Positions 10,646 through 36,070 of a stretch of DNA of 59,136 nucleotides are shown in pieces. The stretch lies in NCBI GenBank assembly GCA_040220235.1, contig JAVJTO010000021.1; one strand, 5' to 3'. Below the pieces are notes generated by a model, which worked only from the letters and a program-made list of their open reading frames with translations, ran no database searches and had not been told where the DNA came from. Both the position numbers and the translations under genes were made by a program. The stretch is from Coleofasciculus sp. B1-GNL1-01. GTDB lineage: Bacteria > Cyanobacteriota > Cyanobacteriia > Cyanobacteriales > Coleofasciculaceae. Positions within the stretch are counted from its first letter, which is position 1. Each line of letters starts with the position of its first letter.

Positions 10646-11564
10646 AATATCTCTGGCAAAACTTCAACGCTACGGCGACATCACTGGTTTGCTGTGGATA
10701 CATTACCACCGGACGATCAATGACAATTAATGGAATTCCCAACTGCGCCGCCACTTGTCGCTTCGTCGCCTCTCCCCCGGCTACCCCAGACGCCTTAGTC
10801 ACCACCCGTGAAATATCCCAGTGACGCCAGAGTGCCATTTCCAATTCAAAGGGTACAGGGGGGCGTACCGCAATAATGCGATCGCGACTAAATCCTGCTG
10901 CTATAGCCGCCTCTAGAGACGTAACGGCGGGAAGAATCCGGGCAAATAAAGTCGATCGCGCTTGCCAGTCTTGAAATAAGGATAAAACTTTATAGCCCGT
11001 GGTTAACAGTACCCGTTGTTGATTTAAATAGTCACCCGCCACCAAGGTTTCAAAACTGTCTAAGCTAATCACAGATGGTTCATTATTCGTCTGTAGGGGC
11101 GGGTTTAGGGAATTGGGTTTCGCTGTTGATGATAACCTTTGTTCAAAACCCGCCCTGACCGATGTGTAGGGGCGGGTTTCACTATTATCATTTGTTGTCA
11201 CCCTGATGTGACTAAACCCGCCCTGATCTCCCCCATCTCCTTGAACGACAGGACGTTCAAAACGCAGGTAGGGAATCTGGTAACGTTGTGCAGTCGCGAT
11301 CGCCATTCGGGAAATTTCTACCGCATAGGGATGAGATGCATCAAGTATGGCTCTAATAGGCTGCTGTTGACAAAGCTGCTCAATCTGCTTAGTATTCAAG
11401 CGCCCCACTTGTATCTGTAAATTTGGCGTTTGAGGATAAAGGGACTCGGCGGCGGCTGTTGTCACCGTAACCAGACAAGGTAAATTTAGAGACGCGATCG
11501 CCTCTGCTAACTGTACACTCTCACTTGTCCCACCAATCAGCCACAGACTTTGACTCTCTGGCAA
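10629..11564 (-). CDS. cbiJ: Cobalt-precorrin-6A reductase (CbiJ/CobK) with an in-frame repeat insertion
   Basis: IGGTSES, LDASHPYA, RFERP, VVTKASG and IVIDRP motifs; about 50 extra residues after RFERP derive from REPINs. Confidence 0.88.
   Translation of the reverse strand: MPESQSLWLIGGTSESVQLAEAIASLNLPCLVTVTTAAAESLYPQTPNLQIQVGRLNTKQIEQLCQQQPIRAILDASHPYAVEISRMAIATAQRYQIPYLRFERPVVQGDGGDQGGFSHIRVTTNDNSETRPYTSVRAGFEQRLSSTAKPNSLNPPLQTNNEPSVISLDSFETLVAGDYLNQQRVLLTTGYKVLSLFQDWQARSTLFARILPAVTSLEAAIAAGFSRDRIIAVRPPVPFELEMALWRHWDISRVVTKASGVAGGEATKRQVAAQLGIPLIVIDRPVVMYPQQTSDVAVALKFCQRYLGIAE
11093..11225. repeat. Two tandem REPIN elements (GTAGGGGCGGGTTT...AAACCCGCCC) inside cbiJ
   Basis: Same family as intergenic copies at 14706, 23007, 23578, 30038, 35976 and 41126. 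Confidence 0.85.
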
Positions 11565-11567
11565 AAC

Positions 11568-11774
11568 CTACCGACCTTTAAGCGCTCTGGTAAAATTTTT
11601 CCGATAAGACTTATTTGCCACAATTAAAGCGGGCCACAACAAAGACAAATAAATTCGGTTAGGCAAGCTACGAGAGAAGTTTGTCCGATTGAACCCCGTC
11701 CACAACTTCCAAACACCGTAGCCATAAATCCCCAACACAAGCAAAACTAATACTTTCATCCAATTAACCCCCAA
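11568..11774 (-). CDS. Small conserved membrane protein
   Basis: 68 aa, Y..G.WK.W.GF.RTNF...LSLLWP motif; apparently co-transcribed with cbiJ. Confidence 0.75.
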   Translation of the reverse strand: MGVNWMKVLVLLVLGIYGYGVWKLWTGFNRTNFSRSLPNRIYLSLLWPALIVANKSYRKNFTRALKGR

Positions 11775-12129
11775 GAAACCGAATCAGGGACTGTTTCACA
11801 CCGACTGCAAAGCCTCAGCCGAGCAAAAGCGAACCTGCTAATTCACTCATTTTAGACCAACTCCCCCAAAACGTCTCCGGTTACATCTGGCAGTATACGA
11901 ATCCTTGAATCACTTTTACAATAACGTTTTCAGCCTTTTAGATGCCACATTTCAGCCCTAGGTAGAATTGATCCCGACTACAAGTCAAAGTAGCATTAAG
12001 TTCAGTTCTAGTCTATTTATCCATTAGAGTTCAGTTGTAGCATGACCGGGCTAGCTTAGTTAAACGAGACAATAAATAGAAAAATATACGGTGCAAACAC
12101 CGTGAAGCCAAAAATTTTTAGGAGGACTT

Positions 12130-14670
12130 ATGCGAGCAGTGCTGATGGCAGGCGGTTCGGGAACACGTCTGAGACCCTTAACCTGTGATCTGCCCAAACC
12201 CATGGTGCCGGTACTCAATCGACCGATCGCCGAACACATTATCAACCTACTCAAACGCCATAATATCACCGAAGTTATTGCTACACTGTACTACCTCCCC
12301 GATGTAATGCGGGATTATTTCCAAGATGGCAGTGACTTTGGCGTGCAAATGACGTATGCCGTCGAAGAAGAGCAGCCCCTCGGTACTGCCGGTTGCGTGA
12401 AAAACATTGCCGAATTACTCGATGATACCTTCATTGTGATCAGTGGTGACAGCATCACCGACTTTGATTTAAAAGCCGCCATTGAATTCCATAAAAGCCG
12501 TAACTCTAAAGCCACCATTGTTCTCTACCGTGTCCCCAATCCTGTGGAATTTGGGGTGGTAATTACCGATGAGCAAATGCGGATTCGCCGCTTTTTAGAA
12601 AAACCCTCAACCAGTGAGATTTTCTCGGATACGGTAAATACAGGCACTTACATCTTAGAACCGTCTGTCTTAGATTACCTGCCCGAAAACACAGAATCTG
12701 ACTTTTCTAAAGACCTGTTTCCCCTACTCTTAGACAAAGGGGAACCCATGTATGGCTTTGTCGCAGATGGATATTGGTGTGATGTCGGTCATCTCGATGC
12801 TTACCGCGAATCCCACTACGACGCCTTAGATAGAAAGGTAGAGATTGATTTTGCTTACGAAGAGCGCAGATCAGGACTATGGGTGGGACAAAATACATCC
12901 ATTGATCCTACGGTTAAAATCGAAACCCCAGCCCTAATTGGCAGTAATTGTCGCATTGGTCCAGGGGTGAATATTGAAGCCGGAACCGTGATTGGGGATA
13001 ATGTCTCCGTTGGGGCTTACGCTGACCTGAAGCGTCCGATTCTCTGGAATGGTTCGATTATTGGTGATGAAGTCCATCTGCGGGCTTGTGTCATTTCCCG
13101 AGGCACTAGGGTGGATCGTCGCGCCCATGTCTTGGAAGGTGCGGTTGTCGGTTCTCTATCAACCGTGGGAGAAGAAGCCCAAATTAGCCCTAGTGTGAGG
13201 GTTTGGCCCAGCAAGAAAATTGAATCGGGTGCCATGTTAAACATGAACCTGATTTGGGGGAGTACAGCGCAACGGAATCTTTTTGGTCAACGTGGCGTTC
13301 AAGGCTTGGCGAATATTGATATTACGCCAGAGTTTGCCGTCAAATTGGGTGCGGCTTACGGATCAACCTTAAAACCGGGGTCTCAAATCACCGTCTCTCG
13401 CGATCAACGCAGTATCTCCCGCATGGTATCGCGATCGCTAATTGCGGGCTTAATGTCCGTGGGGATTCACGTCCAGAACTTGGAAGCCACAGCCATCCCC
13501 ATCGCCCGTCTGGTTGTACCCACCCTAGCGGTTGCTGGGGGAATTCACGTCCGGGTACACCCGGATCGCCCCGACTATATTCTGATCGAGATTTTTGATT
13601 CCCACGGCATCAATATCTCCAAAGCCAAGGAGAAGAAAATTGAAGGGGCTTACTTCAAAGAGGACTTGCGCCGATCGCCGATTCCAGAAATTGGCAATGT
13701 CAACTACCCCAGTCAGTTACTCGATCTCTATAGCGTCGGCTTTGAACGGTATTTAAATGTGCAAGCGATTCGCAATAGTGGCGCAAAATTAGTGATTGAT
13801 TATGCTTATGCAGTTTCTGGGGCAGTTCTCCCCGTCTTGTTGGCAAAATTCGGCTGTGATGCGGTTGTCCTCAATGCCAGTTTAAATCAAATGTCCCTCT
13901 CCGCCGATGAAAGAGAAGGATTACTCACCCAACTCGGTCAAGTGGTGGAAGCCCTTAAAGGTAATTTTGGCGTCCAGGTGTCCGCCAATGGGGAACAACT
14001 GATCTTGGTGGATGAATCCGGAATGCCCGTGCGCGGGGAAACCCTAACCGCGCTGATGGTTAGCGTGATGCTGACGGCTCATCCTCGCAGTACTGTAGTG
14101 GTTCCGGTTCATACCTCCAGTGCTGTGGAACAAATCGCCCGTCGTCATGATGGTCGAGTGATTCGTACTAAAGCGAATCCAGCGGCGTTGATGGAAGCCT
14201 CTCAAACTAATCCTAATGTTGTGTTGGGTGGTTCTGAGGAAATGGGCTTTATTTTTCCGCAACTCCATCCCGGATTTGATGCCATGTTCTGCATCGCTAA
14301 GTTAATTGAGATGCTGACAATTCAAGAGCGATCCCTGGGTCAGATTCGCAGCGAATTGCCTCGGGTGTGCCATAAAACCTATACCATGCGCTGTCCTTGG
14401 ACGGTCAAGGGAGCATTAATGCGCCACTTAGTCGAAACCCATGCCAATGATGACTTAGAACTTATTGATGGGGTGAAAATTGTGGATTGGCAAACAGACA
14501 GTTGGGTGTTGATTTTGCCGGATGCGGGAGAACCGCTAGTCCATGTCTTTGCCAACAGCGATGATCGCAATTGGGTCGATGAAAATCTGAGAAAATATCG
14601 CACTTATGTGCAAGAGTTCATCGAACAAGAGCAAGGGCTGGAACTGCCCACAGCTGAATCGCCTGTCTAA
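12130..14670 (+). CDS. Mannose-1-phosphate guanylyltransferase / phosphomannomutase-like fusion
   Basis: [13 protein letters not shown]...PKP nucleotidyltransferase motif, hexapeptide repeat region, C-terminal PGM/PMM fold; RBS GGAGG upstream. Confidence 0.92.
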
Positions 14671-23899: not shown

Positions 23900-24892
23900 A
23901 TGATGAGACATCTACCGCCTCAATTCGATACTTGCAATACCACCGAAACCATTGACACGCAAGGGTTAGAGGATGTTGGCGTTACTCAACTCCTCTCCTA
24001 CCTCAAGCACTACAGCGATGTTGACTTTGATGCATCCCAAATGCATCTAACCGATGCTGAAGTCAAAATCCTCGCCAAGCTGTTTATTCAGCAGTTGACT
24101 CAAAGCCTCAACGGTAAACTCATCGCTGGCGAATTAAATACCCTGCGTCATGGTGAGGAGATGGAGGAGATGAGGGAGATGACTCCACACTCAGTCGGGG
24201 CGGGTTTAGTCACATCTGGGGAAACAAGAAACGATAGTAGTGAAACCCGCCCCTACACAACACTCAACACTTTTCCTACCCCCCGCTACAAAGAAGGCGA
24301 TCGCGTTCAATGGAAAACCCCAAATCCTGATTGGGGCGTGATTCTGGGACGCTTCTATGAATATAATCATGATCGTGATCAGTGGACGGTTTGCTACCTG
24401 ATTCAACTCGCCCCCGATTCGCCCAGTGCAGCTTGGATTACCACAGATATGGCTTGGGAAGAAGATTTAGAAAAAATACCTGATACCGTTGCACCCAGCG
24501 AAGAGAATGGCTATTCATACCGTTATCCCACCCATTCTCGCCGTGCGATAGCGCCTCCATCTCTGCATAGTCCCAGAGGACGCTACAATACCCACTATCC
24601 CCACCAGCCTCGCCCAATTACTCAACGTGAACAATACATCATTGACCTTTACTGTTACTGTGAATTAGGGATGACACCCAGGGACTTTTATGCTAAGTGG
24701 GATGTCACCTATGAACAAATTTCTCATATTTGCGATCGCTCCCTGGGAACCGTACAATGTTGGTTTAACCTAGGTCAAGGACATCGCCCTCCTAAACCCG
24801 CTGATTTGCGCCATTTGGCAATTATGGATTTTTTGTTAGAGTATTTTGAAGAGATTCCGAAAAAACTTAGAACTATCCTTTGTTCTCCATAA
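23900..24892 (+). CDS. Multidomain protein: DUF1392-like beta domain plus C-terminal cyanobacterial HTH domain
   Basis: P.Y..GDRV.W...DWGVI.GRFY...Y.I.L...W...D.AWE.DLE module followed by MTPRDFYAKW.V.YEQI..IC.RS..TV..WF module; likely ATG at 23900; in-frame REPIN at 24197-24256. Confidence 0.6.
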   Translation: MMRHLPPQFDTCNTTETIDTQGLEDVGVTQLLSYLKHYSDVDFDASQMHLTDAEVKILAKLFIQQLTQSLNGKLIAGELNTLRHGEEMEEMREMTPHSVGAGLVTSGETRNDSSETRPYTTLNTFPTPRYKEGDRVQWKTPNPDWGVILGRFYEYNHDRDQWTVCYLIQLAPDSPSAAWITTDMAWEEDLEKIPDTVAPSEENGYSYRYPTHSRRAIAPPSLHSPRGRYNTHYPHQPRPITQREQYIIDLYCYCELGMTPRDFYAKWDVTYEQISHICDRSLGTVQCWFNLGQGHRPPKPADLRHLAIMDFLLEYFEEIPKKLRTILCSP

Positions 24893-28108: not shown

Positions 28109-29509
28109 TCAGCGCCCGATTTCAACGTCTTCAAGGATACCCAGTGCGTCAGGGACAAGAACAGCCACGGAATAGTAGGCGCTGATTAGATAAGACATAA
28201 TTGCCTTTTCGTTGATACCCATAAACCGGACGGATAGGCTGGGTTGATATTCATCAGGGATACCTGTTTGGTGTAAGCCAACCACCCCTTCATTCTCCTC
28301 ACCGGTGCGGAGTGCGAGGATGAAGCTCGTATTGGCTTTCGTAATCGGAATTTTGTTGCAGGGAAAGATGGGAACGCCACGCCAACCGAAGATCATCTGC
28401 CCGTTTACCTCAACAGTCTGGGGATAAATGCCACGGTGGTTACATTCCCGACCAAAGGCAGCAATGGTGCGGGGGTGAGCCAGGAAGAACTTCGACTTCT
28501 TCCGCCGAGAGAGGAGTTCATCCAGGTCATTTGGGGTGGGTGGACCGGTGCGGGTGAAAATACGCTCCTTGAGGGCTGCGTTGTGCAGCAATCCAAATTC
28601 GCGGTTATTAATTAATTCGTATTCCTGCCGTTCCCGCAACGCCTCAATCGTCAGCCGTAACTGTTGCTCAACCTGATTTATGGGTTCATTGTACAGATCA
28701 GCCACGCGGGTGTTGATCCGCAAAATGGTTTGAGCCACACTCAACTCATACTCGCGCGGTTTTAATTCGTAATCCACAAACGTCCCTGGCAATTCGGTTT
28801 CCACCGGATGTCCTGCTGATATAGCGATCGCGGCTTGACCGTGTTTGTCTTGGGGCTGTCTCAACCTGGCTCTAAATTGATCGACCTGAGCCTGGAGCGC
28901 CTCGGACTGGTTGAGTAACTGCCGAAATGCCTGAATCGGCAGGGATAATACTGTACAACTTGTTACCGCCCGTAGAGTGACATTCCAACTCTCCTGGGAC
29001 TCAACCATTTCTTGACCCCCAACATGGTCACCGTCGGCGAGTACATCTCGTAAAGCGTCTTCCTCATATTTTCCCGGTGTCATCTTGTTGACTTTACCGT
29101 GAGCAATGAGTAACACGCGATCGGCGGGTTGACCCGCCTGGACAATCACGTCACCTGCGGCAAACTCTTGTTGCACAAATCGGTCTGCTAAGGCATTTAA
29201 CACCTCAACATCGTCAAACCCGCGCAGCAAGGGTAGCTCACATAGGGATTGGGGAATCACCCGCACGTCGGTGCCCGTGTTGGTAAAGCTGACTCGTCCA
29301 TCCCCGACGGTATAGCGTAACCGACGGTTCACCCGATAAGCACCCCCCTTGATCTGCACCCAAGGCAACATCTTCAACAGCCACCGTGGGGTGATCCCTT
29401 GCATCTGCGGCACGGTTTTGGTCGTGGTTGCCAAATTCCGGGCGGCGGCTGTGTTCAAACTCATCTGCGGCTGTTCACTCTCAACCGGCAAATTGGCGGC
29501 ATCTGTCAT
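28109..29509 (-). CDS. Family 2B encapsulin shell protein with cNMP-binding domain insertion (cnb-type, copy 2)
   Basis: [24 protein letters not shown], internal cNMP domain, [31 protein letters not shown]; real start MTDAAN at 29509 by comparison with the paralog. Confidence 0.92.
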
Positions 29510-29880
29510 AAAAACTCCTTCGTTGTGGGAAACCCCGTGTATGCGAGACCGGGGATGAACACGCGATAGCGGTTTTAACCGCATACCCCTTTCGGGGGTG
29601 GAGGGGTATGGTTGCCCCTCCGATGAGGTAGGGTTGCCTCAGTCTCCTTTCGGGTAAAGTTAGCTTCGCCAATGTTATCGGTCGGTAACTATCCAAAAAG
29701 CACTGTTTCAGTGACCTTAAAACTGTTTAACTTTTCGGTTCTAGAGCAGTAAACTAGCTACGCATTTACTGGTAGGTCTTAAACACTTGCCGATAACGTA
29801 GTCAGTTAAGACTTAGGCTGGTAAGCACAGCTTTAACTTATTTGGCTTTTGCTCCGTGTCTTTAGACCGGGGTTGCTTAC
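29510..29880 (-). mobile_element. Non-autonomous IS200/IS605 (IscB-type) element lacking the iscB ORF
   Basis: Related subterminal hairpins at both ends (CCCCGGTCTAAAGACACGGAGC and CCCCGGTCTCGCATACACGGGGTTTCCC), a full omegaRNA, no ORF; right boundary inferred at the ATGA. Confidence 0.7.
29645..29880 (-). ncRNA. HEARO / IscB omegaRNA scaffold
   Basis: Minus strand: GTAAGCA...TGCTTAC 5' stem, CAGCCTAAGTC..GACTACGTT, CCTACCAGTAAATGCGTAGCTAGTTTACTGCTCTAG, AAACAG...CAGTG, long-range GTTATCGG/CCGATAAC pair, AACATTGGCGAAGCTAACTTTACC...GGAG: the HEARO hallmark segments in order. Confidence 0.8.
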
Positions 29881-29924: not shown

Positions 29925-30155
29925 GTAGGGTGGGCACTGCCCACCATGGGTGTCAACTTAAGCCACAACCCTTGCCCCTTCTAATTTTTAGCGACGGGGT
30001 TCCTGCTCCCTCGGCTGATAGCGATCGCCACCGGAAAAGGGCGGGTTGAATGTAGGGGCGGGTTTTACTACTATCATTGGCGGGTTGCACCCAGATATGA
30101 ATAAACCCGCCCCGACAAAGTTGTTGCCATAAGTTATCTGTAAAACCCGCCCCGA
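29925..30155. repeat. REP/REPIN cluster and a partial MITE end between the encapsulin genes
   Basis: GTAGGGTGGGCACTGCCCACC, GGTGTCAACTTAAGC, and nested GGGCGGGTT...AAACCCGCCCC arms. Confidence 0.7.
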
Positions 30156-30201: not shown

Positions 30202-31611
<1,410 letters not shown>

Positions 31612-31944
31612 GATGATTTTCCTTTGGTTAATGTTAGTTAATGTTTGGTGAACTTTTGGTCAATTATGGTTATTACCTCTAGTTGTCTTTGCTTGCGGCT
31701 GGGTGCTTTTAGCTTGACTAGATTTCCTCACCTGTATGGAATTTGAATTGTGCTGTTGGGGGATTAAAGTGCGAACTCAATCCTATGGATTACCCCTTCA
31801 GCATCCGGTTCCTCCTTATGGTTTCACCGAAACGAATCGCACCAAGAAAGCCCTACAGACCTTGACTAGATTAAGACCATAGACCTCTCCAGAAATTAGG
31901 TTTGAGCCAGAGTTTTGACTTTTGATACCCGTAATTTCGCCAAA

Positions 31945-34587
31945 TCAGCTTTTGGGTCCTAACAATGAGCTAATCTGCATCACTGACGTGCCTAATCCTG
32001 TGGGAAGACTGGGTAAACTCTCCGCCTCTGGCTCCGCCTCTGTTTCTGGCTGGGGAGTCTCGGCTAAACTGGCGGCAATCTGCATCACTGACGTGCCTAA
32101 TCCTGTGGGAAGACTGGGTAAACTCTCCGCCTCTGGCTCCGCCTCTGTTTCTGGCTGGGGAGTCTCGGCTAAACTGGCGGCAATCTGCATGGCTGAGGTG
32201 CCTAATCCTGTGGGAAGACTAGGTAAACTCTCCACCTCTGGCTCCGCTTCTGTTTCTGGCTGGGGAGTCTCAGCTAAACTGGCGGCAATCTGCATGGCTG
32301 AGGTGCCTAATCCTGTGGGAAGACTAGGTAAACTCTCCACCTCTGGCTCCGCCTCGGTGTCTGGCTGGGGAATACCGACCGAACTCAACAACGATGTTAT
32401 CCGTGCGGCTGAACAACCTAAAGCGGTAGGCACATTGAACAAGTTCCTGGGGCTGGGATCTCGTTTAAATTCAAATTCTTTGTAGTAGTCGGAACCCAAG
32501 AACCATTTGGACAGACCAGACATCATGATCTGTAGTTGTTCAACATAGCTAAAGAGCAGCTCGCGATTCCTTGCATCTAAGTCAAAGTCCTCACAGAGCG
32601 CTGGGAGTTCGGTGGCGACGATGTGTTCAAACTCACGCACCCGCGCCGTGATCAGGTTGTTAACAATCTCAACCGCTTGTGCTACATCACAGTCAAGAAA
32701 ATGCTGAGTGATCAACACGCTATTGAAGAGTATGCCTTCAGATTCCATTTCTTTCTGATAGGATACGATGTCATTGACTAAACCAGAAACATTGGCAGCC
32801 ACTTTATGCATGCTTTGTACTAGTTGAGTGTCATAAAGCTCAGGGGGCATTTTCTCACCTTGGTTCAAGAGCATCACGAAATCAAAACCAAATGTCTTGC
32901 CGCTTGTCTCGATATAATCGATTGGGTCGGGGATACGATTTTGTGCCTGGTGGTCAAGTTGCCACGCCCAACTTTCAAATATTTTTACGAGGGAGCCCCT
33001 CATCTCCTCCTTGTCCTCGGCAGACAAAAAAGAAGTCATTCTCTGCCATAGATACACTAAACCACGTTCCGATGGGTTAGTTGGCATCAACATCGGACCA
33101 GAGTCGCTAGCGATCAATGCCAATAGTCGAGCCAGGTACACTCTACCCCCCACTATGTTGCGGGTCGCTAAGTAGCGTCCCTCAAATACACCATCAATGT
33201 AAAAACCCCAAACCTGGCCTTTTGCCGCCAGCTCATAGACAGCTTGGGGAGCATCCGGATAAATTAATGCAGACATCAACGCCACATCGATCGCATCAAA
33301 CTTCTGTTCATCCCAGAAACTGATGCCAGGAATACCGATCATTCCCATTTCGTAAGCCCATTCCTTAGATGTCCGTCGCCCTTCTTCTAGGTGCGGATTC
33401 AATCTTGTCGAAAAGGGCATATAAAACTCGGGTAGGGGCGTTTTTCCCACCGTCTGGAAAGGAATATAATTATAAGTTCTTACCCTTAGTCCCATCGCCG
33501 CCGGCGATAAGCCTATACGCGCAGCTGCCGTACCCAAGCCTTTGGGGCCTCCGAGTGCCGATTCCTTTTTCGATTCGGCGGGTAGGTATCGACCTCCGGG
33601 TCGGAGTTCCCACTCCAGATCCCCAGCCATCCAGTCTTGCAGTGCTTTCACATAGCGAAATACCCGGTATCGTGCCTCACTATCCAACCTATACTCATCC
33701 AATAGTGGGGGTAGTTCCACCGTCATGGTATTCTCGAACAGGAATAGTCGTGAAGTAACCAAGTCATTGACGACGTTAACAGCTTCCTGGATCTCCGTGT
33801 TGAAGAAGTGTTCCGCGACCACTACACAGTTATTGACCTTGCCGTCATCAATATCCTTCTGGTAGGAAATGATATCGTTGCGTAGACCGACGCTATCCGC
33901 GTAGGTGTCATTGAGTACCTGGATCGGTCGCTTGTCATAGAGCTCTGGTGGAATCTCAACCGTTAGGGAATGTTCGACCAAGTCGGCCGACCAAAACACC
34001 CCGCCTATCTGACGGCGCAGCGCGATGTATTCAACTGGATCGAGTATCCACTCCTGGTTATTGCCCGTGTTGAACAGTTCTCGTAGGTTGGCTTCTGCCA
34101 TGACTCGGATGTGTTCAACAAACCGCTGTCGCCACTGCACTGACATCGTTGGTGCGGTACGAGGCCACAGATCTGCTAGGGCGTATTCAGTCGGGTTCTG
34201 GGACTCCGGTATAGGAGTGGCTAGATCGCTGGGCATAAAGGACAGCAGTCGAGTCAAATACGCCTTTGCCTCTTTTATATCTGAACTTCCACCCTCGAAT
34301 GTTCGCGGAAAGTAGTCATCGACAAACCACCCCCAAACATACCAATCGCTGAGTAAGTCCAACTCCGGTGCCGGTGCATCTGGGTGAGTGGCAGCGGCAA
34401 AGCCGGCGAAATCCATCGCCTCAAAGGTTTCTTCATCCCATACGGTATCCTCATCCGAGCTGAGGATGCCCATCCGATACGCCCATTCCTTGCAGTGTAG
34501 GCGTGCCCCCTGTACATTGGGGTTCACACGCGCGGGCCAAGGCATATAAAAATCCGGTAATTCAAAGGGTAGCTGGCTTGATGTCAT
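31945..34587 (-). CDS. Two-domain germacradienol/geosmin synthase-like terpene cyclase with a repetitive C-terminal tail
   Basis: PFELPDFYMPWPARVNP start; N-domain DDYFP, NDIISYQKD and GRY; C-domain PEFYMPF, RIPDPIDYIE, NDIVSYQKE, with a degenerate Asp-rich motif (DGVFE). Confidence 0.85.
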   Translation of the reverse strand: MTSSQLPFELPDFYMPWPARVNPNVQGARLHCKEWAYRMGILSSDEDTVWDEETFEAMDFAGFAAATHPDAPAPELDLLSDWYVWGWFVDDYFPRTFEGGSSDIKEAKAYLTRLLSFMPSDLATPIPESQNPTEYALADLWPRTAPTMSVQWRQRFVEHIRVMAEANLRELFNTGNNQEWILDPVEYIALRRQIGGVFWSADLVEHSLTVEIPPELYDKRPIQVLNDTYADSVGLRNDIISYQKDIDDGKVNNCVVVAEHFFNTEIQEAVNVVNDLVTSRLFLFENTMTVELPPLLDEYRLDSEARYRVFRYVKALQDWMAGDLEWELRPGGRYLPAESKKESALGGPKGLGTAAARIGLSPAAMGLRVRTYNYIPFQTVGKTPLPEFYMPFSTRLNPHLEEGRRTSKEWAYEMGMIGIPGISFWDEQKFDAIDVALMSALIYPDAPQAVYELAAKGQVWGFYIDGVFEGRYLATRNIVGGRVYLARLLALIASDSGPMLMPTNPSERGLVYLWQRMTSFLSAEDKEEMRGSLVKIFESWAWQLDHQAQNRIPDPIDYIETSGKTFGFDFVMLLNQGEKMPPELYDTQLVQSMHKVAANVSGLVNDIVSYQKEMESEGILFNSVLITQHFLDCDVAQAVEIVNNLITARVREFEHIVATELPALCEDFDLDARNRELLFSYVEQLQIMMSGLSKWFLGSDYYKEFEFKRDPSPRNLFNVPTALGCSAARITSLLSSVGIPQPDTEAEPEVESLPSLPTGLGTSAMQIAASLAETPQPETEAEPEVESLPSLPTGLGTSAMQIAASLAETPQPETEAEPEAESLPSLPTGLGTSVMQIAASLAETPQPETEAEPEAESLPSLPTGLGTSVMQISSLLGPKS
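31973..32370 (-). repeat. Four near-identical 105-bp (35-aa) coding tandem repeats
   Basis: TCCTGTGGGAAGACT recurs at 31996, 32101, 32206 and 32311; unit SLAETPQPETEAEPE(V/A)ESLPSLPTGLGTS(A/V)MQIAA. Confidence 0.95.
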
Positions 34588-35150
34588 TGTTCATTTACGC
34601 TTATTTGCTGAAAATTGTTGTTACGCCTGGGTGGAAGTTCAATGAATTGGATAGCTATAGTAAATTTTGATATAAGATAGTCGTCTTATACCTTGTCTTC
34701 AACACTTCATAAAAAACCTGCCAAAACTGGCGATTAGCACGGTTTCGATTGGTTCACAGCTAGCTAGTTAGGCTGGCTTGACTCAATTAGGCAGTTTTAA
34801 AGTAACACTGATTCTTTAAATAAATGATTATGCTATCGCTTAGTACAAAATTACTAAAACCCGTCTAATGGCTGATAATCACCAGAAAAAAACACCTAAT
34901 TTTTATCTCAGTAGCCATAGTATCTCAAATCATTGAGTCTAATTTTTTTGTCATAAAACTTAACCAGTTGGGCAACGTGGTTCAGCTGTGGCGTTTTGAC
35001 GTTAAAACATTGTTAATTTTCTCCAAGCCCATTGCCCTTTTGTGCTTAATTGAACAGACCATAGGGGAACAGGTAAAGGTTTGGGAACCAAACCCCTACT
35101 CAGATACAATAAAGGGCTGTAGAGAAAACGGTATCAGGAGAAAAACACGA

Positions 35151-35888
35151 GTGCTAACCCTTGGCGTCAACATTGACCACATCGCCACCATTCGACAGGC
35201 GCGGCGCACTGTGGAACCCGATCCGGTGGCGGCGGCGGTGTTAGCTGAATTAGCGGGTGCGGATGGGATTACTGCCCACCTGCGGGAAGATCGACGCCAT
35301 ATCCAAGATCGGGATATCCGACTCTTGCGTCAGACGGTGCGAACTCACTTAAATATGGAAATGGCACCAACAGAAGAAATGATCGCGATCGCACTCGATA
35401 TTAAACCGGATTATATTACCCTAGTTCCAGAACGGCGGGAGGAAGTCACAACCGAGGGAGGATTGGATATTGCGGGTCAAAAATCCCGCCTGGGTGAAGT
35501 GGTGACTCAGTTGCAAGATGCCGGGATTCCCGTTAGTCTATTTATCGATGCTGATCCTGCCCAGATCCAAGCATCGGCGGCAATTAACGCTAAGTTTATT
35601 GAACTGCATACAGGTTCCTATGCAGAAGCCAAAGACGAAGCCAGTCGCCAAACGCAACTGGATCTGTTAGCCAAAGGATGCCAAGATGCGATCGCGGCTG
35701 GGTTGCGTGTGAATGCAGGTCATGGTTTAACCTATTGGAATGTTTACCCAGTGGCTTGTTTACCCGGTATGGAAGAACTTAATATTGGTCATAGCATCAT
35801 CGCACGAGCGTCGCTAGTTGGATTAGAACGAGCCGTTCGAGAGATGAAACAAGTAATGGGGGGAAGGGTAGAGGGTTATCATCAATAG
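35151..35888 (+). CDS. pdxJ: Pyridoxine 5'-phosphate synthase
   Basis: [43 protein letters not shown] start at 35151 after AGGAG. Confidence 0.95.
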
Positions 35889-35975
35889 CGAAACGCAATT
35901 TCTTAAGTCTAACCCAATAAACCATGCCTTCGAGCGCAGCCAAGGAGCAAAACCCAAAACGCTCTCACGCTTATC

Positions 35976-36035
35976 GGGGCGGGTTTAGTCACATCTGGGT
36001 CAAAAAGAGATGATAGCCGTGAAACCCGCCCCTAC
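35976..36035. repeat. REPIN element
   Basis: GGGGCGGGTTTAGTCACATCTGGG...GTGAAACCCGCCCCTAC. Confidence 0.8.
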
Positions 36036-36070
36036 ACACTCAAAACGTTCCCAATCACCCAATTAAAACG

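Follow-up and report, generated by a model that had tools for sequence, protein, structure and literature searches.

Tandem, copy-number-variable repeats of a putative cargo-loading peptide on a GeoA-like terpene cyclase encoded beside Family 2B encapsulins in Coleofasciculus

Why would a terpene cyclase that already carries a cargo-loading peptide (CLP) end in four further copies of much the same motif? The question is raised by a gene in a 59,136-nucleotide stretch of DNA (the window) from the cyanobacterium Coleofasciculus sp. B1-GNL1-01 (GCA_040220235.1, contig JAVJTO010000021.1). The gene (31945-34587, minus strand) encodes a two-domain class I terpene cyclase of 880 amino acids (aa), which resembles geosmin synthase (GeoA) but is divergent, and two Family 2B encapsulin shell genes lie downstream. 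We confirmed that the C-terminal repeat array is real, and we hold it probable, if far from settled, that the tail arose by tandem expansion of the GeoA-type C-terminal peptide (CLP2), with redundant copies that add to the linker peptide (CLP1) and a copy number that drifts under weak selection.

The array fills the last 170 codons of the open reading frame (ORF) with four in-frame 105-bp (35-aa) units, each an acidic Pro/Glu stretch followed by LPTGLGTS[AV]MQI. Tandem Repeats Finder (period 105, 3.8 copies, 96% matches, 31972-32371) and a motif scan both recovered unit 1 (aa 735-769, 32281-32385) and unit 2 (aa 770-804, 32176-32280), which carry LPTGLGTSAMQI at aa 756 and 791, and unit 3 (aa 805-839, 32071-32175) and unit 4 (aa 840-874, 31966-32070), which carry LPTGLGTSVMQI at aa 826 and 861; all lie on the minus strand, and the native C-terminus follows unit 4. 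The motifs are spaced by exactly 35 aa, and each unit has a net charge of -5 or -6. Pairs of units differ at 4-17 of 105 nt, by silent and replacement changes alike, and units 3 and 4 are identical across 114 bp. Across the array, the gene's own frame has 0 stops and the other two minus-strand frames have 9 and 4; on the plus strand, one frame is open too. A 187-aa ORF on that strand (31922-32485, plus strand) is probably an antisense shadow of the repeat, and the array of locus L003 has a similar ORF, of 145 aa, on its opposite strand.

Two further motif sites precede the array on the same strand: a CLP1 equivalent in the linker (aa 347, 33511-33549, GPKGLGTAAARI / GPKGLGTAAARIG) and a degenerate ancestral CLP2 (aa 719, 32395-32433, VPTALGCSAARI / VPTALGCSAARIT). 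We derived a weight matrix from 176 sites of the motif in canonical GeoA-type homologs and applied it to the genome's 7,392 open frames (2.57 M residues), where the six sites of the window rank 1-6, from 36.8 bits for the linker peptide to 15.6 bits for the decayed CLP2 (canonical-site median 43); the next site scores 9.7. The six sites, being the top six of the genome, are thus not chance matches. No further copy of the array DNA was found elsewhere in the genome. A preliminary description had recognized four 35-aa tail repeats, a degenerate copy and a linker copy, and the ORF, the repeat finder and the motif scan bear all of these out; the linker copy is present but lies outside the interval first given for the array.

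That description took the motifs for loading peptides by analogy with 2-methylisoborneol (2-MIB) synthases, and the match extends to a consensus demonstrated experimentally for GeoA itself. In Myxococcus xanthus, CLP1 in the linker and CLP2 at the C-terminus bring GeoA into a two-component shell; deletion of each costs ~30% of loading, deletion of both leaves ~20%, and either suffices (PMC13739066, Fazal et al. 2026). The GeoA peptide has the form GP(N/T)GLGTSAAR, and synthetic GPTGLGTS alone gives density at the three-fold pocket (PMC13739066). GPTGLGTSAAR between the domains and at the C-terminus had already been predicted as a targeting sequence in geosmin synthase (GS)-like cyclases (PMC8346489, Andreas and Giessen 2021). 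The linker peptide of the window matches CLP1 of M. xanthus (PMC13739066), and all four tail copies carry PTGLGTS within flanks that depart from the consensus.

The presumptive shell is encoded by the next two genes on the same strand, separated by gaps of 333 bp (cyclase stop to enc1 start) and 692 bp. Shell protein 1 (469 aa, 30202-31611, minus strand) and shell protein 2 (466 aa, 28109-29509, minus strand) score 768 and 781 bits against NF041163 (cut-off 400), both combine PF19307 (HK97-type, SrpI-like) with PF00027 (cyclic-nucleotide-binding fold), and they share 72% identity; they are the only full-length shell matches in the genome, and their closest solved structures are 9bje, 9bix and 9bhu. 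In the Streptomyces griseus shell SgEnc, residues F430, Y441, L285 and L264 lie under the cargo density (PMC11550324). These four align with L265, L286, F432 and Y443 of shell protein 1 and with L263, L284, F429 and Y440 of shell protein 2, so that the pocket is conserved. Both genes are thus Family 2B encapsulins by family score, with the pocket residues kept. At least one Family 2B shell gene also lies downstream of the cyclase in 8/8 fetched lineage loci (L008-L015).

The enzyme that bears the tail shares the architecture of GeoA, with two class I cyclase domains joined by a linker (PF19086 in two stretches; N-terminal domain aa 15-335, 33583-34545; C-terminal domain aa 384-703, 32479-33438; both minus strand). 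Its N half resembles the Streptomyces coelicolor GeoA structure 5dw7 (E 8e-89), and an ESM Atlas model (predicted template-modelling score 0.75), uninformative for the tail, has its best structural match in a Family 2 cargo cyclase cluster. Its score against NF041168, 969 bits, falls below the curated GeoA cut-off of 1200. Among named proteins, its closest matches come from Coleofasciculus. In the N domain, DDYFPR and NDIISYQKD replace the DDHFLE and NDLFSYQRE of GeoA (PMC7251104), changes that appear to weigh against GeoA identity and not against activity, because the metal-binding DD, N and S are kept; R191/R192 and RY333-334 are retained as well. In the C domain, IDGVF stands for DDYFP, S562 for a conserved R and YY for RY, and the NSE motif is kept.

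To place these changes, we assembled a homolog set from the best 120 of 1,674 hits, less the 1529-aa protein P0016, plus the query, which divided by N-domain signature into 26 variant and 94 canonical proteins. The same degenerate C-domain motifs occur in all 14 members of the cluster that contains the window protein; all three motifs are intact in 94/94 canonical homologs. The C-domain DD and RY are both retained in 7/26 lineage variants versus 94/94 canonical proteins. By comparison, the N-domain DD, RR pair, N..S..D triad and RY are invariant among 20 aligned variants, and the N-domain tree, which included 25 variants, places 18 of them with the query in a supported clade (100/99). Median ratios of nonsynonymous to synonymous substitution rates (dN/dS) were 0.17 for the N domain and 0.36 for the C domain, with the C domain higher in 27/27 pairs of 8 genes, pairs that are not independent of one another. 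P0016, from Nannocystis, matches the cyclase at about twice the usual length, has only two motif sites (aa 339 and 1515) and possibly holds four cyclase domains.

On these grounds, the N-terminal domain is probably the active cyclase, and the C domain remains constrained, perhaps as a scaffold. GeoA active-site mutants that lose the C-domain aspartates reportedly form no geosmin. Because the C domain carries out the germacradienol-to-geosmin step (PMC7192455, PMC7251104) and is degenerate here, we think it fairly likely that the window cyclase forms no geosmin; the cargo would then probably be a cyclase with one active site that makes another sesquiterpene. A search of the 8.66-Mb genome with the window cyclase as query found a single terpene-cyclase locus. 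The idea of a second copy beside a canonical geoA was rejected, as no canonical geoA was found in the genome. In five other genomes with the variant, the top NF041168 scores are 913-1069 and no gene exceeds the cut-off, so the variant replaces geoA rather than accompanying it.

A comparison of repeat number across strains, as the preliminary description had proposed, showed that it varies. Among the 14 near-identical proteins that fall with the window protein in a 90% cluster, members that do not amount to 14 independent strains and may come from shared populations, there are 0 repeat copies in six, 2 in four, 3 in two and 4 in two. The order of A- and V-type units is shuffled between alleles (P0125, P0130), a pattern that unequal exchange would produce. 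The six zero alleles all finish with one shared foreign octapeptide, and the DNA of loci L005, L023 and L024 shows the cause, at an insertion site at window 32388-32389 (no strand; empty in the window). In L023 (3637-5045) a whole 1.4-kb element with a 367-aa RRXRR ORF sits at window 32389, ahead of one orphan unit; the match of this ORF to the IscB model is confined to the model's N-terminal part and falls below cut-off, and a truncated copy matches PF14239. We presume that the size of the element would fit the IsrB type. In L005 (genome G002; element at 11180-12255) and L024 the element is cut short and window 31956-32388 is deleted; in L005 both shell frames are open despite the loss of the array. 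Loose ends in the sequencing runs, matched by eye, fit the insertion or deletion junctions (three in run X1, two in run X2). The zero allele thus arises through IS200/IS605-type insertion, followed in some alleles by deletion. The array appears, from these sequences, to be both polymorphic and dispensable, with an operon that persists without it; such an operon keeps only CLP1 and a decayed CLP2, which fits the published redundancy of the two peptides.

For the origin of the unit, a canonical GeoA (P0021) is informative: at its C-terminus stands an intact CLP2 and, after it, a single copy of the acidic repeat unit, so the unit either predates the variant's expansion or was exchanged between genes. 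The N-domain DNA of locus L009 is 89.5% identical to that of the window, and its three repeat-type units match those of the window at 82-98 of 105 nt. Because so diverged a relative has a related array, the array seems older than its last duplication, and only units 3 and 4 look very recent; the earlier impression of a recent expansion therefore stands for that last step (114 bp exact) and not for the array itself. The L009 gene (5926-8682; P0014) is also a domain swap, with an N domain 88% identical to that of the window and the same repeat tail; its C domain is only 35% identical in protein and groups with P0023 in a C-domain tree that was a quick version without bootstrap.

How might such a tail work and change? 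On the reading that we favour, the Enc1/Enc2 shell would receive each GLGTS motif in a hydrophobic pocket on an inner three-fold axis, with the acidic Pro/Glu stretch as a flexible spacer. The tail copies would act redundantly, adding to the intact linker CLP1 and standing in for the decayed CLP2. The one-unit form found on the canonical GeoA of the genus would have been multiplied by unequal recombination or slippage, so that copies are easily gained and lost; selection would keep the motif letters and act weakly on copy number, and the whole array could go while the operon stays. Between successive units of seven proteins, silent and replacement differences number 15:1 at the five anchor codons, 15:23 in the rest of the motif and 18:103 in the flanking spacer (Fisher p=0.002), a contrast that points to selection on the motif letters in a test that is anchored on intact motifs, omits decayed copies and has a replacement count inflated by spacer indels.

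That bias is one of several points that weigh against tandem expansion under weak selection. The tail copies carry L for G before the P and SAMQ or SVMQ for SAAR, and they score 20-31 bits against the canonical median. In S. griseus a consensus motif improved loading and was not required (PMC11550324), so by analogy a motif match is no proof of a binding element. Among the 14 cluster members, some populations may have been assembled more than once, and counts of tandem units can go wrong in short-read assemblies. Finally, amplification is common in the lineage, so selection for more copies may be viable.

This last point opens the alternative that survives best, which we judge possible though on balance unlikely: copy number would be a selected dial that sets loading avidity, or one tail would bridge several three-fold pockets and help shell assembly. 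At least three tail motifs occur in 16/26 variants (degenerate copies such as ALGCSA counted) versus 0/94 canonical proteins by regular expression; by eye, canonical P0068 has three, and five canonical proteins were counted with two. Two distinct kinds of unit have been amplified, the acidic 35-aa unit of the window and a mostly near-neutral 33-45-aa unit with LNGLGTSAAKIG, found in Nostoc-, Microcoleus- and Limnofasciculus-labelled members. Where the linker motif is missing, 13/13 variants have two or more tail motifs and 11/13 have three or more. Bridging to a neighbouring pocket is feasible by length, since a 35-aa unit has a contour of up to 12.6 nm and neighbouring three-fold axes would lie 6.4-7.9 nm apart at an assumed inner radius of 9-11 nm. 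On the other side, zero repeats is the commonest allele (6/14), with the shells intact in G002, and MxEnc1 forms shells without cargo and only ~25% of Myxococcus shell pockets are occupied (PMC13739066). The link between linker loss and tail gain may also be thinner than it looks: the 11 Nostocales-type members without the linker motif all have one substitute linker sequence and occupy scattered positions in the N-domain tree, so that one or two events may underlie the apparent compensation.

A more sweeping account, which we regard as unlikely, would have the lineage turn geosmin synthase into a shell-packed cyclase with one active site and a new product, move loading from linker to tail, and set packing or pocket bridging through a copy number of 0-4 altered by recombination and an IS200/IS605-type element. 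Were this true, several cyanobacteria now annotated as makers of geosmin would produce a different compound, and the natural allelic series would offer a direct way to test multivalent loading of Family 2B shells. The variant occupies the geoA operon position and can be annotated as geosmin synthase: for Limnofasciculus baicalensis, a paper lists geosmin solely on the basis of an antiSMASH prediction, and the one GeoA-like gene that turned up in its genome belongs to the variant type. If variant enzymes make no geosmin, gene-based odour forecasts are wrong for their carriers, and a new encapsulated terpene awaits.

We give little credence to the possibility that the locus is a decaying relic, in which the tail no longer matters and the repeats are neutral slippage products. 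It would account for the degenerate second active site, for a cyclase matched in only 2/8 other genomes of the genus, for the loss of the tail by insertion and deletion and for a split shell gene in one relative (L013). Against it stand dN/dS values below 1 in both domains, invariant N-domain catalytic residues in 20 sequences, two shell proteins that pass the family cut-off with open frames, and the silent excess at motif codons.

It is very improbable that the acidic tail serves mainly for solubility, or for protection against aggregation or proteolysis, with the motifs riding along. The charge of each unit and the published instability of free GeoA (PMC13739066) speak for such a role, yet tails of the other repeat type are near-neutral (net charge mostly -7 to +3; P0017 -12), and the motif is the conserved part. 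An assembly artefact is hardly credible: units 3 and 4 are exact over 114 bp and no sequencing-run contig spans the whole four-unit array, but the units carry distinct substitutions, arrays of 2-4 units occur in 8/14 cluster members, among them a further four-unit allele whose units are ordered differently, and the more distant L009 has the array as well. One contig of run X13 skips 210 bp at a depth of 4 and may be a collapse.

Returning to the tandem expansion of CLP2, comparison with known systems delimits what it would add. M. xanthus GeoA, loaded into MxEnc1/MxEnc2, has one C-terminal CLP and is a proven geosmin synthase (PMC13739066), whereas the window cyclase has a decayed CLP2 and then four tandem copies on acidic spacers, and its N-domain motifs are altered and its C domain is degenerate. 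The S. griseus 2-MIB synthase and SgEnc (PMC11550324; 9bhu) share the GPxGLGT motif, motif repeats and the three-fold pocket residues, and many 2-MIB synthase loading domains exceed 200 residues with multiple motif repeats (PMC11550324). That enzyme, however, is a one-domain monoterpene cyclase with an N-terminal Gly/Ala/Pro-rich domain and one shell gene; the window enzyme has a C-terminal, exact-period, acidic array on two cyclase domains. In neither published Family 2B system could the cargo-peptide densities from cryo-electron microscopy be modelled (PMC13739066, PMC11550324). Family 2B GS-like operons (PMC8346489; NF041168) share the linker and C-terminal motifs with the window, whose cyclase falls below the family cut-off, and the accessible portion of PMC8346489 makes no mention of tandem amplification of the C-terminal motif. 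The canonical geoA-cnb-cnb cluster (PMC7251104), exemplified by P0021 with its single acidic unit, has the same operon layout; its cyanobacterial GeoA is 52% identical to the window cyclase and has DDHFLE/NDLFSYQRE where the latter has DDYFPR/NDIISYQKD.

Loading by repeated CLPs, and loading of GeoA into a two-component shell by linker and C-terminal CLPs, are thus already published. New are the exact tandem, copy-number-variable array, the amplification that runs across the lineage together with loss of the linker motif, and a GeoA-like cargo whose second active site is degenerate. Our literature search, which left subscription journals mostly uncovered, found no description of the array or the lineage, and figure images (PMC13739066 S9-S10, PMC11550324 S1c) may show such tails. 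As a natural allelic series of 0, 2, 3 and 4 evenly spaced copies on near-identical enzymes, the locus is a clean setting for asking whether valency changes loading, and the tail unit is a modular tag for encapsulin engineering.

Co-transcription of the cyclase and shell genes is inferred from gene order only. A scan for promoter-like (3 versus 6.8 expected) and terminator-like sites (12 versus 7.6 expected) was uninformative, and contigs of RNA run X2 cover the locus without being evidence of transcription. Among relatives, enc1 is split into two ORFs in L013 (8705-10113), and L010 (8514-10407) yielded a single shell ORF. Rfam matches to the Sernc350 antisense RNA lie inside both shell genes (31066-31563 and 28977-29467, plus strand; 114 and 109 bits) and may reflect only coding conservation with the actinobacterial source gene. 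A dispersed intergenic repeat of ~60-70 bp was found by blastn at 11165-11226, 24193-24259, 30051-30112 (between the shell genes) and 35971-36036.

The operon collects IS200/IS605-type elements. A full-length match to the HEARO RNA (RF02033, 141 bits, gathering 83) lies between the shell genes at 29654-29880 (minus strand) and recurs in L005; no ORF of at least 100 aa is listed beside the window match, which is probably the remnant of such an element. In L006 (10296-11474, minus strand; G001), a TnpB gene (NF040570, 267 bits, cut-off 100) lies between cyclase and enc1. Upstream of the window cyclase is a gene that we take to be pdxJ-like (35100-35642). A partial duplicate of this gene abuts the end of enc2 in L005 (6955-7324; G002), a hint that insertion or rearrangement of the operon took place at the pdxJ-like gene.

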